In this document: positions 2,156 to 58,808 of the stretch, piece by piece
Layout: each line of letters starts with the position of its first letter
Numbering within the stretch: position 1 is the stretch's first letter
Source of the DNA: a virus
Lineage: Duplodnaviria > Caudoviricetes
Strand: one strand, 5' to 3'
DNA: 64,000 nt
IMG/VR virus record: IMGVR_UViG_3300020112_000604
Location: 96,001-160,000 of that record
The notes under the pieces: generated by a model
Databases searched by the model: none
What the model was told of the DNA's origin: nothing
What the model saw: the letters and a program-made list of their open reading frames with translations, nothing else
Translations under genes and position numbers: made by a program

Positions 2156-2181
2156 TAAGTCAAAATTCGACAAAAAAAAAT

Positions 2182-2208
2182 AATGGAGAGGTATGTAACC
2201 TCTCCATT
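2182..2208. terminator. intrinsic terminator hairpin
   Basis: AATGGAGAGG-loop-CCTCTCCATT followed by a long T-run on the minus strand, downstream of the dockerin gene. Confidence 0.7.
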
Positions 2209-2238
2209 ATATCCGTGTTAGCGTTTTAGTTTGCGCGA

Positions 2239-3066
2239 TTAAAGACTCATTAAATCAAGAGCTTTCCAGTATGCAGCTGCATCCGGAACTCTGCCGTATG
2301 ATTCGGTCTTATCGTATGATAACTGCGCACCGATTAAGAGATAGTCGTTTCTCAGTGTAGGCTGATATACAGAGGCTGTTACAAGAATCTGTTTTCCATC
2401 CTTGTAAATATTCTGGACTTTGTAATCGAAGCCGACACCGAAGTTTTCGGCGCCACCGTCATAATGAACTACTGTGGAGAGTATGGATACTTCACCATAG
2501 TCATCAGACGTTGCTGTAGCATACTTGTAATCGATGTCTGTGATTGAACATGACGTTGTCATAGGGATATACGCAATGTCACGTTCATCGTAGTTATCCT
2601 CGGTCATTTCATCATGAAATGCCGAGTCGCCATTGAGGTATAAGTAGTTGCCTTTTCTTATACCTTCGAATCTCCAGAATTCACCGGAGCCTTCCTGATA
2701 GATGTATCCGTCTTTTTCGACTATATCTGTATGACTTACTAAGGCTGTGAATTTGTCACACTCCTTTATGTCATAAATCGGGTACTGTGAACGTACCTTG
2801 CTTATAACCTGTCTGAGTGTTGCGAGGTCTGCAAGATTGACTTCGTCATCTCCGTCCATATCGGCTGTGGCTGCATCGATTTTGCTGAAATTGCTATCAA
2901 CGAGTGCGACAGATAATGTGGAAAGATCCGTGATGTCTACCTTACCGTCGCAGTTGACGTCGCCGGTCGAATAATATACGGCGTCCGTCTGTGCTGCTGA
3001 AACGGATGGAATTGCCATTGATACCCCCATTACGATTGCCATTGCTACTGTGATGATTCTTTTCAT
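2239..3066 (-). CDS. secreted dockerin-domain protein
   Basis: Likely start MKRIIT at 3066 (AGGAGG RBS); signal peptide ending VSA/A; paired Ca-binding repeats GDVNCDGKVDITDLSTL and ADMDGDDEVNLADLATLRQ; unknown C-terminal domain. Confidence 0.85.
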   Translation of the reverse strand: MKRIITVAMAIVMGVSMAIPSVSAAQTDAVYYSTGDVNCDGKVDITDLSTLSVALVDSNFSKIDAATADMDGDDEVNLADLATLRQVISKVRSQYPIYDIKECDKFTALVSHTDIVEKDGYIYQEGSGEFWRFEGIRKGNYLYLNGDSAFHDEMTEDNYDERDIAYIPMTTSCSITDIDYKYATATSDDYGEVSILSTVVHYDGGAENFGVGFDYKVQNIYKDGKQILVTASVYQPTLRNDYLLIGAQLSYDKTESYGRVPDAAAYWKALDLMSL

Positions 3067-3137
3067 TTTTGATTTCCTCCTGAAAAATAATATACGGGTA
3101 GACATAGTCTACCCGTGTTTGACGTATTGAAGAGTGT

Positions 3138-3200
3138 TCATCTTCTTGGTCCTGTTGATGTGTCAGCGATAACGCCGATTACCCATAAGATAAAATCCAT
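3138..3200 (-). CDS. 20-aa hydrophobic peptide MDFILWVIGVIADTSTGPRR
   Basis: AAGGAGG RBS 9 nt before the ATG; lies between the two dockerin genes. Confidence 0.4.
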   Translation of the reverse strand: MDFILWVIGVIADTSTGPRR

Positions 3201-3314
3201 GGTGTAATACCTCCTTTTGAATTACACTTACGTGATTACTATCTTTGTTCCAAGAAGACTAAATAATAACAAGTAGGGAGGAGACATTATAGCCTCCTCC
3301 CTTCGATTGTTATC

Positions 3315-4526
3315 TTATCTTACGAACATTGTGTCATCGAACCATGCATCAGATTCAATAATTAAATCAAATACTTCAGCATCTTCGACCTGTAAAATCT
3401 CAGAGTTAAATGAGAACCATCTGTTCTGAGAAGTTACAGTAATTACTTCTTCACCGGTGCAGATTACTGTTGCTGCTCTAACACCGATGAGTTCGAATTC
3501 TTTGCCGTTAAACATGTAGAGTCTTACGGACTTCATACCTGTCTTACCGGCTGTTGACGGGTTGTCAGACGCTCTTGTATCAGCAACCCACATACCTACG
3601 ATATTTCTTTCGGCATCATAGATATATTCAGCGGACTGTTTCCATGTAAGCTTTGTTGTGCCAGGAATGAATGCGATGTTACCAGCATAGTTTGTTGAAA
3701 GCTGGTCCCATGAGAATACAACGGTCTTAGCATCCTGAATTCTTGATGTATTCTTGATGCTATTGACAAAGTCGTTATGCATAATATCCATGTTCTGGAT
3801 ATTATCCGTCAGGTTTCTGTTACCCTCTGTATTCATTGCTGGAGTAACAGTGAATGATTCAGCTGAGCCAGAAGCTGCGATAGCTTTGATTGTTGTATCC
3901 ATATCGTTTCTGAAATCTTTAGATGCAGCTTTCTGTCCGAATGATACGCCCGTAACTTCAGGTTCTGTTGTTGTGACTGCAGTTGTTGTTACAGGTACTA
4001 CTTCTGTTGTAGTAACAGCTGTAGTTGTTGTAGATTCTGTTGTTGTTACAGCTGTAGTTGTTGTAGCTTCTGTTGTAGTTGTAACTGTTGTTGTTATAGC
4101 CGGTGTTGTTACTGCAGGTGTTGTAACGGCTGCTGGATTACCATAGCTATCCTTGATATCCTGAGCAGTTATCTGATGGCAGATAAACTGTCTCAGTATA
4201 GCCAGGTCAACTAATGATATAACACCATCGGAATTCAGATTTCCTACACCGTCTCTTGTGTAGATTTTGAATTCATTAATTGTCGTTTCTTCACCTATAA
4301 GATAGAGTGAGAGATAAGACAGGTCTGTTATGTCAACCACATTGTTTCGGTCGATGTCACCGATAAGCGTCATGAACGTATCGTCAGGCAAATCTGTCAT
4401 GCCTTTCGACATGTTCCACCGACATGTTGCATAATTGAATTCTGCTGCCGCTGGTCTGATGCCTGTTGTTGTTAATGCAGCTATTGCTGCTAATGTAACG
4501 ATTGCTGATGTAAATATTTTTTTCAT
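3315..4526 (-). CDS. secreted dockerin-domain protein with Thr-rich linker
   Basis: Signal peptide ending PAAA; repeats GDIDRNNVVDITDLSYLSLYL and GNLNSDGVISLVDLAILRQF; long TTT(A/E)V linker; AGGAGG RBS. Confidence 0.85.
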   Translation of the reverse strand: MKKIFTSAIVTLAAIAALTTTGIRPAAAEFNYATCRWNMSKGMTDLPDDTFMTLIGDIDRNNVVDITDLSYLSLYLIGEETTINEFKIYTRDGVGNLNSDGVISLVDLAILRQFICHQITAQDIKDSYGNPAAVTTPAVTTPAITTTVTTTTEATTTTAVTTTESTTTTAVTTTEVVPVTTTAVTTTEPEVTGVSFGQKAASKDFRNDMDTTIKAIAASGSAESFTVTPAMNTEGNRNLTDNIQNMDIMHNDFVNSIKNTSRIQDAKTVVFSWDQLSTNYAGNIAFIPGTTKLTWKQSAEYIYDAERNIVGMWVADTRASDNPSTAGKTGMKSVRLYMFNGKEFELIGVRAATVICTGEEVITVTSQNRWFSFNSEILQVEDAEVFDLIIESDAWFDDTMFVR

Positions 4527-4584: not shown

Positions 4585-4773
4585 TTATTCCCAGCCCATA
4601 GACTTCATCCATCGGTGACAATCATAGATGGAGCCGGATGAGAACCAGATTTTACCTTCTGGCGTAGGTATTTCATTAGCGATCTTATCATTTTCAACCT
4701 TGTAATACTTGCCTGAGCAAGTCATGCGGAAAACTATAAATGCTTCTGTTTTACTTGTGTGAATTTCGTACAT
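4585..4773 (-). CDS. small early hypothetical protein
   Basis: AAGGAGG RBS; first gene after the early promoter and structured leader. Confidence 0.7.
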   Translation of the reverse strand: MYEIHTSKTEAFIVFRMTCSGKYYKVENDKIANEIPTPEGKIWFSSGSIYDCHRWMKSMGWE

Positions 4774-4799
4774 GGTTAAGTTCCTCCTTTGAACTATAA

Positions 4800-4874
4800 A
4801 TGCCCTGCATCATAGGCGTTTTTGTATTAGATAAGGTGATGCATATTGTTCCTTATCACTATAATAATATACAA
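4800..4874 (-). promoter_or_regulatory. early promoter plus conserved structured 5' leader, copy 1
   Basis: TGTATATTATTATAGTGATAAGGAACAATATGCATCACCTTATCTAATA..CGCCTATGATGCAGGGCAT, near-identical to 24420..24495. Confidence 0.8.
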
Positions 4875-4905
4875 TTGAATATGGTGAGTTTCTCGGGTAT
4901 AGCTG

Positions 4906-4918
4906 AACATCATTATAA
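4906..4918 (+). promoter_or_regulatory. late (non-virion RNAP-type) promoter AACA-N6-TAA
   Basis: AACATCATTATAA upstream of the prohead protease; the same spacing occurs at more than 12 sites. Confidence 0.7.
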
Positions 4919-4947
4919 ATGCACTTAAATAAAGGAGGTATTGCTAT

Positions 4948-57071: not shown

Positions 57072-58808
57072 TTAAGCCTTGAGGTCATCTGCTGTGATAA
57101 CCTTCCATGAATGATTTCTGAAATCTGCTTCTACACTATCCTGATTCATGATATTGATATTAGCAAAGATTTCGTCTACTGATGCCTTTGGATGATCGAG
57201 AATCCACTGCTGTGAATCACTATTGCATCCCGCATTGATGTAGCAGCGTGTGTAAAGGATGATTGCATCCTCATCTGTAACGCCGGCTTCCTGAGCTTTC
57301 TTGATTGCTCGTGAGATTACATTACAATCGAATCTCCACTGTGTATCAACAGCCCAATCCTGAATAAGAAGTTCTGATATGAATCTTTCATCATCAGTGC
57401 CTTCTACAAGATAGAAGTTTTCCCAATAGTCATCAAGTTCTGGATCTGAGAATCCAGTATACTTAGCGAGTATTGAATTGAATCCTTCAGGGTTCTCGTC
57501 TCTTATCTGTTCGATAAGTTCTCTTCCGAGTTCTCCTCTAGCCTGAATTGCACCGAGTGAGCATGCACCGTTGTCATTCAGGTTTATAGTGTTGGCCTTT
57601 CCATAGGCGCCGATTTCAAACCATTTGTTAAATGAGAGACACTTCTGAATAAGTTCCATCGATGGTTCAGAAACGGATCCGGTGTTGGATCCGGCTGAAC
57701 TGGGTGTAACGTTTTCAGGTTTTACAGGTCCAACCATTTCTTCTGGTTCTGGTTCTGTGTTGACATATACCATTCCATATTCGTTAGGAATGTCTATGCC
57801 GATTTCAGGGTCGAGACAATTTACCGGACAACCGTTGTCTCTGATTTCATAGTGACAGTGGTCACCTGTTGATGAACCGGTAGTTCCTTCGTAGCCAATC
57901 TTCTGTCCCGCTTCTACGTAATCGCCTTCTGATACGTAGATTTCAGACATATGACCATAGTAGTACCAGTAGCCGTTATCTCCAACGATCTTTACATACT
58001 GACCGAATCCCTGATATGGGTCGTAAGGGTTTTCCCAGTCAGCATATTCTACATATCCTGGATGTGTTGCAAAGATTGTGTAGTCGCCCTGTGAGCACAG
58101 GTCAACTCCCCAATGGTAGATATTGTCTCCTCTGTATTCACCATAGATTGATGATACATAGAAGTCGCAATTGAAAGGCATCTGAGTCTTGCACTCTCTT
58201 GAGTCAGTTGCTTTGCCGCCGCCATCATTAGATGTCTCTAACGTAACTGTATAGATTGCATCTTCTGACAGGACATATTCTTTACCCTTAGTATCTATAA
58301 ATACCATATCCGAAATACTGAGGCTTGTACCTGTGCACCATGTAAATTCAAGTGTCATGGTATTGTCATCATCGACCCACATGTTAAGTGGTGATGACTT
58401 GGTTCCGATTGAATATGTAGTCCTTACGGACTGTTTACCTGCGACTTCTTTGTAATCTTTGCTGTCTACAGGAACACAATCGCAGAATGTTCTTGTAGCT
58501 TCTTCAGAGTTCTTATCTTCATATGTAAGGATACCCTGTGTACAGAATGCCTTATATTCAGGAAGTTCTGATGTGTTGACATCACAAGTGAACTTGATGC
58601 TTGCGATATCGATAGGTTTCGGATTTGCTGTTGGACATATTCCGCCAGTTGCGAAGAATGCCTCGTCAAGATCGATTACTAATGGATAGTATCCAATTTC
58701 TCCATCCATGTATTCACTACTTCCGTTGTAGTTACATACGTTGGATATCATTGTTAATCCCGTGATAGCTGCTGTTACCACACTAATTCTGTTCTTTGTT
58801 ACTGCCAT
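57072..58808 (-). CDS. secreted M23 peptidase with C-terminal lysozyme-like domain
   Basis: Hydrophobic N-terminus; M23 motifs HWGVD, YGHM and TGSSTGDHCHYE; C-terminal FEIG..NDNGACSLGAIQ lysozyme-like motif; early promoter at 58883-58890. Confidence 0.8.
   Translation of the reverse strand: MAVTKNRISVVTAAITGLTMISNVCNYNGSSEYMDGEIGYYPLVIDLDEAFFATGGICPTANPKPIDIASIKFTCDVNTSELPEYKAFCTQGILTYEDKNSEEATRTFCDCVPVDSKDYKEVAGKQSVRTTYSIGTKSSPLNMWVDDDNTMTLEFTWCTGTSLSISDMVFIDTKGKEYVLSEDAIYTVTLETSNDGGGKATDSRECKTQMPFNCDFYVSSIYGEYRGDNIYHWGVDLCSQGDYTIFATHPGYVEYADWENPYDPYQGFGQYVKIVGDNGYWYYYGHMSEIYVSEGDYVEAGQKIGYEGTTGSSTGDHCHYEIRDNGCPVNCLDPEIGIDIPNEYGMVYVNTEPEPEEMVGPVKPENVTPSSAGSNTGSVSEPSMELIQKCLSFNKWFEIGAYGKANTINLNDNGACSLGAIQARGELGRELIEQIRDENPEGFNSILAKYTGFSDPELDDYWENFYLVEGTDDERFISELLIQDWAVDTQWRFDCNVISRAIKKAQEAGVTDEDAIILYTRCYINAGCNSDSQQWILDHPKASVDEIFANINIMNQDSVEADFRNHSWKVITADDLKA

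Follow-up and report, generated by a model that had tools for sequence, protein, structure and literature searches.

Six dockerin proteins with predicted export signals form a conserved, fast-diversifying island in an AR9/PBS1-like jumbo phage and may plug into host cohesins

The 64,000-nucleotide stretch analysed here (the window) comprises bases 96001-160000 of the linear IMG/VR virus record IMGVR_UViG_3300020112_000604 (183,720 bp, estimated 75% complete). It contains two adjoining minus-strand genes, D5 and D6, each encoding a signal-peptide-like N-terminus, a dockerin module and a C-terminal cargo domain. A Dockerin_1 search of the whole record identified six dockerin open reading frames (ORFs) within 12 kb, of which D5 and D6 are the last two; the island reaches 7.5 kb upstream of the window. 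The features of the D5-D6 segment are as follows.

2180..2210, minus strand: intrinsic terminator after D5, a 13-bp stem followed by a T-run
2239-3105, minus strand: full D5 ORF, 288 amino acids (aa), from the ORF list
2239..3066 (stop included), minus strand: D5, predicted exported dockerin protein, 275 aa from Met14 of the 288-aa ORF (ORF list, sequence)
2242..2790, minus strand: D5 cargo domain, predicted beta-rich, paralogous to the D3 cargo
2791..2979, minus strand: D5 dockerin module, residues 43-105 of the 288-aa ORF (Pfam 36.2 bits, alignment)
3087..3094, minus strand: TATATTAT core motif, 5 nt before the D5 ribosome-binding site, without extended flanks (motif match)
3275..3302, minus strand: intrinsic terminator hairpin after D6, an 11-bp stem with 7 GC pairs, then a T-rich tail
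3315..4526, minus strand: D6, predicted exported dockerin protein, 403 aa (ORF list, dockerin search)
3318..3950, minus strand: D6 cargo domain, residues 193-403 (sequence)
3951..4130, minus strand: D6 Thr-rich linker, residues 133-192, 60 residues (sequence)
4173..4376, minus strand: D6 dockerin module, residues 51-118, with an inter-repeat linker longer than usual (Pfam, alignment)
4443..4526, minus strand: D6 signal-peptide-like N-terminus, residues 1-28, ending AAA|E (heuristic scan, sequence)
4585..4773, minus strand: 62-aa ORF, probably co-transcribed with D6 (ORF list)
4857..4874, minus strand: early-type promoter TTGTATATTAT-N6-G upstream of the 62-aa ORF and D6 (extended motif match)

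As the criterion for a type I dockerin we used a duplicated segment of ~22 residues with a 12-residue loop carrying D/N at positions 1, 3, 5, 9 and 12, followed by a helix. D5 contains two 12-residue calcium loops, DVNCDGKVDITD and DMDGDDEVNLAD, and scores 36.2 bits against the Pfam Dockerin_1 cut-off of 22.9; D6 contains DIDRNNVVDITD and NLNSDGVISLVD and scores 22.4 bits for the first repeat alone and 30.9 bits with the same-frame second repeat. Both loops are present in all six island proteins. In D5 and D6 alike, VDITDLS follows loop 1 and L-x-DLA-x-LRQ follows loop 2. With a profile of the phage dockerins, calmodulin EF-hands ranked below solved type-I dockerins (C. thermocellum, C. cellulolyticum, A. 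cellulolyticus and others), whose E-values ran from 1e-13 to 1e-7. On these sequence features the dockerins of D5 and D6 are classed as genuine and type-I-like. Their N-termini begin MKK/MKR and continue through a hydrophobic core to VSA|A or AAA|E; a heuristic scan called a K/R-rich start, a hydrophobic core and an A-x-A site in both. By the same crude heuristic, 7 of the 13 signal-peptide-like N-termini of the 184-kb record fall in the 12-kb island. An earlier note on this stretch had described two tandem genes, each with a signal peptide and a paired calcium-binding dockerin, sharing the motifs D-I-T-D-L-S and L-x-D-L-A-x-L-R-Q, having unrelated C-terminal domains and, in one case, a long Thr-rich linker; all of these elements are present, and the hidden Markov model check that it proposed is passed by D5 and, with both repeats, by D6.

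The true start of D5 is most likely Met14 (window 3066), because the ATG further upstream falls within a hairpin and relatives have their genes called from Met14. Met14 is also where P0001 (identity 96% over the searched cargo region) and an Atlas record start. This hairpin (window 3094-3116, minus strand), a 10-bp GC-rich structure that ends at the TATATTAT core and includes the upstream ATG of the 288-aa ORF, could serve as a terminator or attenuator or be a promoter-proximal structure. A 20-codon ORF (MDFILWVIGV..., window 3138-3200, minus strand) with a strong AAAGGAGG ribosome-binding site stands in the gap from the D6 terminator to D5; it is letter-for-letter identical in three close relatives (L010-L012) and absent from a relative with a 268-kb contig.

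The two cargo domains are unrelated (hhalign probability 0.2%), and the idea that they are paralogues was rejected. A profile of the D5/D3 cargo retrieved 5 relatives among 1.84 billion cluster representatives, all of the same architecture, and the D6 cargo search returned 8 proteins, all from related contigs. Word-indexed and exhaustive sequence searches of the cargos likewise found relatives from the same phage group only, and orthologues of D6 (49-93% identity) are confined to related phage contigs. In these searches both cargo families are restricted to this phage group. A profile search of the D5 cargo family against PDB gave no match, an ESM Atlas search with the D5 cargo returned nothing, and the D6 cargo had no Pfam or PDB match and no distant homologue. 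Pfam detected no carbohydrate-active enzyme (CAZyme) or carbohydrate-binding module (CBM) family in D5 or D6, and PHROG gave no match to superinfection-exclusion proteins (T4 Sp/Imm, T5 Llp). Hints of CBM27, CBM65 and CBM30 for the D6 cargo in an ESM Atlas language-model search (0.78-0.81) were at noise level and were not used; sub-threshold matches to T4_Spackle (E 0.021, signal peptide only), RecG_dom3_C and DUF5926 were rejected. The Thr-rich linker of D6 is encoded by 33-bp tandem repeats (4001-4100), and its length differs among orthologues. Of 301 genomes sampled from a cohesin-rich Clostridia family, 54 have Thr-linker repeats similar to the DNA of this linker, at no more than 82% identity over ~100 nt; as evidence of gene transfer this likeness was rejected as low-complexity similarity.

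The early-type promoter upstream of the 62-aa ORF and D6 is one of 18 extended-motif sites in the record and fits the experimentally defined early promoter consensus of phage AR9, AAATATATATTAT-N6-G (PMC5312081). The bare TATATTAT 8-mer before D5 occurs 33 times in the genome against ~28 expected; because it is unenriched, the D5 promoter is doubtful, and the extended motif alone was used. The earlier note had placed both genes in tandem downstream of an early promoter. By analogy with AR9, a candidate promoter of this kind precedes D6 with the 62-aa ORF, but not D5, and the genes adjoin but form separate transcription units, each with its own intrinsic terminator. The 62-aa ORF keeps its position in two relatives (L008 and L010) and has no match in Pfam or PHROG.

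The D6 promoter lies on the minus strand of a divergent intergenic region (window 4774-4947) and is followed by a structured leader (ATAAGG...GCATC...CCTTAT) common to other early genes. On the plus strand, at 4906, an AR9-type late motif, AACATCATTATA, faces the prohead protease gene. Both this AACA-N6-TA match and the divergent layout agree with AR9, in which the late consensus AACA-N6-TA and a divergent early/late arrangement were described (PMC5312081). Late-type motifs also stand upstream of D1 and of the S1-D3 block, with an estimated chance rate of ~9% per upstream region. Judged from these motifs, expression timing is probably mixed across the island.

The rest of the island precedes the window and comprises four dockerin genes and a duplicated module.

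G000 88549-94304 (L007 6549-12304), minus strand: four further dockerin genes, D1-D4 (Dockerin_1 search)
G000 93650-95597 (L007 11650-13597), minus strand: duplicated module of a GNAT-like acetyltransferase and a small secreted protein

D1 (352 aa) and D2 (380 aa) are paralogues with 31% identity; each combines a signal peptide and a C-terminal dockerin with a transglutaminase-like core whose Cys-His-Asp triad is intact. D3 (284 aa), a paralogue of D5, carries its dockerin at the N-terminal end and has a cargo related to that of D5, and D4 (99 aa) consists of a signal peptide and a bare dockerin. The D4 gene sits between the two copies of the GNAT/secreted-protein module, whose copy number varies among related phages; the GNAT-like copies have 147 and 157 aa (sub-threshold in Pfam) and the small secreted proteins 101 and 111 aa. 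The putative recognition residues I-T (loop positions 10 and 11, repeat 1) and R-Q (positions 17 and 18, repeat 2) are common to D1, D5 and D6. D2, D3 and D4 differ at these positions, D4 with W-A and A-R. Because D1, D5 and D6 share their recognition residues, one common cohesin target for these three, plus others, is suggested. In a relative with a 189-kb contig (L010 17512-18571), the D1 orthologue is split into ORFs of 188 and 138 aa, reflecting either a frameshift/pseudogene or an assembly error.

By gene content the phage is an AR9/PBS1-like (phiKZ-related) jumbo phage of lytic type. The window encodes an S77 prohead protease and a divergent family B DNA polymerase (divDNApol), together with virion proteins, GroEL and an M23 peptidase (Pfam/PHROG); a split multisubunit RNA polymerase is represented by PHROG beta-type subunits at three loci. 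By polymerase, the closest isolates, at ~25% identity, are AR9, PBS1 and Staphylococcus jumbo phages, all of which infect Bacillota. Against the size criterion for this type (>200 kb), the record has 184 kb at 75% completeness, and the contig of one relative has 268 kb. No integrase was found in the record. The earlier note's description of a lytic-type jumbo phage agrees with this gene set.

On one side the island borders on the prohead protease, the divergent polymerase and split subunits of the RNA polymerase, on the other on a giant M23 protein (~4,150 aa), and GC content is uniform over the region. The M23 domain of the giant protein is present in the copies of relatives. Elsewhere in the window (57072-58808, minus strand) an M23 peptidase protein of 578 aa carries a hydrophobic segment at its N-terminal end and may be a signal-anchored lysin. 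The island occupies the same position in the 268-kb contig ERZ1767606 NODE_5 and the 189-kb contig, both from ENA, in JGI and Logan fragments and in a more distant 31-kb Logan contig; IMG/VR holds one further fragment of the same phage group only. The earlier note had named host contamination as a danger to its proposal; the island is syntenic in four independent assemblies, and the genes are phage-borne.

Comparison with the 268-kb relative revealed a strongly uneven pattern of divergence. The backbone DNA is 92-94% identical, and the polymerase and protease proteins are 98-99% identical with a nonsynonymous divergence (dN) of ~0.006. Protein identity falls to 78% for D1, 68% for D6, 59% for D5 and 41% for D3, with dN of 0.13-0.6 and a ratio to synonymous divergence (dN/dS) of 0.12-0.4. 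D2 and D4 are replaced in relatives, and the D2-D4 segment is unalignable with the 268-kb relative. The dN/dS values below 1 indicate functional genes that are diverging fast or being swapped as cassettes. Within D6, compared with L008, the dockerin is 88% conserved and the cargo 55% identical; because the dockerin is conserved despite saturated dS, strong purifying selection on it is indicated. A constant anchor with variable cargo fits the pattern typical of genes facing the host surface, and hypervariability of the island within a backbone 98-99% identical at the protein level would likewise suit a role in host-surface interaction.

A search with the cohesin family PF00963 returned no match in the 184-kb record, even at E<=1. 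Since the record is without a detected cohesin, a host-borne partner is the simplest reading. Among 401 genomes sampled from the Clostridia order Oscillospirales, 134 have phage-like dockerins (best ~49 bits); with so many matching genomes, dockerin similarity is undiagnostic for the host and does not single out Ruminococcus. The phage signature is missing from all of the best-matching bacterial dockerins, most of which, in contrast to the phage modules, have internal symmetry. Relatives of the transglutaminase core (26-51% local identity) come mostly from metagenome-assembled genomes (MAGs) of gut Clostridia, among them Oscillospiraceae, Acutalibacteraceae and Ruminococcus from ruminant, rabbit, horse and human sources. 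Full-length relatives combining transglutaminase and dockerin were found at two loci only, in a rumen Oscillospiraceae MAG and a buffalo-omasum MAG, with 16 and 5 cohesin matches, respectively. Of the five genomes whose dockerins match best, four have cohesins, and 7 of 9 candidate-type genomes (those with the best dockerin or transglutaminase-dockerin relatives) have 2-16 cohesin matches each. When the island DNA was searched against the 301 genomes, only the Thr-linker repeats and ribosome-binding-site/start regions matched. The earlier note's proposal that the genes point to the host lineage holds broadly, for gut Clostridia/Oscillospirales, but not for any single lineage. Judged from these matches, the host is most likely a cohesin-bearing Gram-positive gut anaerobe in Oscillospirales.

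On balance we lean towards the view that the exported phage proteins plug into host cohesins and remodel the surface of the infected cell, as members of a conserved, fast-diversifying 'secretome island' of AR9/PBS1-like phages. Several points weigh against it. The D6 dockerin is borderline on Pfam alone, and positions 1 and 9 of its loop 2 are occupied by N and S, respectively. Signal peptides were called by heuristic only. The promoter classes are motif matches made by analogy with AR9, and D5 is without the extended motif. AlphaFold2 models built from alignments of 7 sequences for D5 and 3 for D6 reach a mean predicted local distance difference test (pLDDT) score of 42 and 33, respectively, and wider homologue searches offered no deeper alignment; the cargos yield no fold and thus no tie to receptor masking. 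The record is ~75% complete; the remainder could encode a phage cohesin, and PF00963 could miss one that has diverged too far. Finally, the 301 sampled genomes contain no CRISPR spacer or recent DNA match to the island.

The strongest competing account, which we consider unlikely, is that there is no cohesin partner and that the dockerin-like modules are calcium-dependent stabilising, carbohydrate-binding or wall-binding domains of ordinary secreted accessory factors. Non-cellulosomal dockerins are widespread, and many dockerin proteins occur in organisms without matching cohesins, which counts in its favour, as does the lack of a cohesin match in one of the five best-dockerin-match genomes and one of the four genomes with transglutaminase relatives; endolysin dockerins in IMG/VR also lie beside LysM, as if they were wall-binding modules. 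However, the recognition positions are conserved over three paralogues and the D6 dockerin is under purifying selection, as would fit a specific protein partner, and the closest full-length bacterial relatives reside in cohesin-rich genomes.

Rather less probable again is a self-contained kit, in which the dockerins bind a phage-encoded cohesin-like protein and the complex sits on the cell or on released virions. The missing quarter or so of the record and the giant virion-type M23 protein adjoining the island leave room for it, yet PF00963 finds nothing in the 184 kb, no cohesin was called in the 20-kb syntenic loci of three relatives, and signal peptides would part these proteins from cytoplasmic virion assembly. 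Host contamination or chimeric assembly, by which bacterial dockerin DNA was misjoined to a phage contig, is excluded for practical purposes because the same island and flanks recur in independent assemblies from other samples: dockerins are typical of bacteria, and just 1 of 50,697 GenBank phage records matched the D5 dockerin, but phage genes stand on both sides with even GC content, phage-type promoter motifs and terminators separate the genes, and the cargo families are confined to these phage contigs.

For the favoured reading, in which host cohesins receive the phage dockerins, we infer export, binding, timing and biological role as follows. Each island gene would be transcribed as a short unit, D6 from its early-type promoter by the virion RNA polymerase and other island genes from behind late-type motifs. 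The products would be exported by the host Sec pathway with removal of the signal peptide, and the calcium-loaded dockerin would then plug into cohesins of the host's own surface scaffoldins, which may belong to a cellulosome, an amylosome or a different cohesin scaffold. The infected cell would thereby display phage cargo, namely the D5 and D6 domains and the transglutaminase-like Cys-His-Asp enzymes of D1 and D2. Early members, together with D4 as a bare dockerin, may take up places on the scaffold or mask it, so that superinfection is blocked and progeny are spared adsorption to debris, by analogy with T5 Llp. The late transglutaminase-like members may cut or cross-link surface components, loosening the layer for release. 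The interpretation in the earlier note is thus supported in part: phage-borne, genuine dockerins and a probable host-borne partner agree with it, and its three roles, namely masking of a receptor, displacement of host enzymes and altered fibre adhesion, are candidates only. A more specific proposal, which we advance tentatively, is that this jumbo phage clade uses the host cohesin scaffold as a display rack, with a conserved plug and swapped, quickly evolving cargo domains specific to the phages; this extracellular and modular system would serve to exclude superinfection, to mask receptors or to take apart the cellulosome layer.

Cohesin-dockerin coupling is viewed as a way in which bacteria and archaea assemble surface enzyme complexes. 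If the proposed docking is real, a lytic phage loads its own proteins onto the host scaffold with the plug half alone, which would constitute a new phage route to rewiring cell surfaces in fibre- and starch-degrading gut communities and could explain how a phage copes with a thick cellulosome layer at entry and exit. It would also offer an experimental handle on phage-host pairing, as the cohesin that binds would identify the host. The hypervariable cargos are lineage-specific orphans under selection and therefore good candidates for new surface-active functions. Should the display-rack proposal hold, it would add a new class to the surface interactions between phages and hosts, and the island would supply naturally occurring orthogonal dockerins. 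Among ~8.4 million open-access papers and preprints we found viral dockerins mentioned in passing only, for an ANME-2 virus contig and a brine-pool jumbo phage, and no description of a phage hanging its own dockerin proteins on a host scaffold.

Compared with known systems, the island dockerins resemble type I dockerins (PF00404; C. thermocellum Xyn10B, 1OHZ/2CCL; C. cellulolyticum, 2VN5) in having two calcium loops of 12 residues with a helix after each, and also in predicted secretion and a Thr-rich linker; the phage profile matches 1OHZ, 2CCL and 2VN5 at E 1e-9 to 1e-7. Unlike cellulosomal and amylosomal dockerin proteins, they are encoded by a jumbo phage, carry the dockerin at the mature N-terminus in D5, D6 and D3, have asymmetric repeats and a cargo that is not a carbohydrate-active enzyme, and have no scaffoldin alongside. 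Strains of Ruminococcus flavefaciens each encode 180-223 signal-peptide-bearing dockerin proteins that include putative proteases, serpins, leucine-rich repeat (LRR) proteins and unknown modules (PMC4081043). The likeness to these lies in D1 and D2, transglutaminase-like enzymes with dockerins. Bacterial proteins match them locally, in short parts of the transglutaminase core, at no more than ~50% identity; the phage copies have fewer residues, and D5 and D6 are without bacterial counterparts.

T4 Spackle and Imm are superinfection-exclusion proteins exported to the envelope. In T5, the lipoprotein Llp is reported to block the FhuA receptor (bioRxiv 10.1101/2022.06.28.497910). The island proteins share with these three a phage origin, export (presumed for D5 and D6) and a proposed action at the surface, with D6 behind an early-type promoter; they differ in lacking any sequence relationship and in the proposed anchor, a dockerin in a host cohesin, which is undescribed for such proteins.

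Among viruses, dockerins have been annotated on a putative ANME-2 virus contig, where a possible role in adhesion was discussed (PMC13452462), and on a brine-pool jumbo phage (bioRxiv 10.1101/2024.01.25.577265); unlike the present island, those are single annotations with no multi-gene island or divergence data, and their hosts are unrelated. IMG/VR contains at least 10 other contigs with similar dockerins, including fusions to GH25 endolysins and a bare secreted dockerin. GH25 muramidase-Dockerin_1 fusions lie on two unrelated contigs (L112 5329-6357 and L116 4966-6171), one also with LysM; an 89-aa secreted bare dockerin is encoded on a 106-kb contig (L117), and L111 encodes a protein with LRR, a transglutaminase core and a dockerin. 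The occurrence of such endolysin fusions on other phage contigs suggests that phages use dockerins as targeting modules. The GH25-dockerin fusions are like D5 and D6 in placing Dockerin_1 in a phage protein, presumably for reaching the host surface; unlike them, they have no signal peptide, carry a known muramidase cargo and are single genes on smaller, unrelated contigs. What distinguishes the present island is its dockerin-only, multi-copy and hypervariable make-up in a jumbo phage of Bacillota type.

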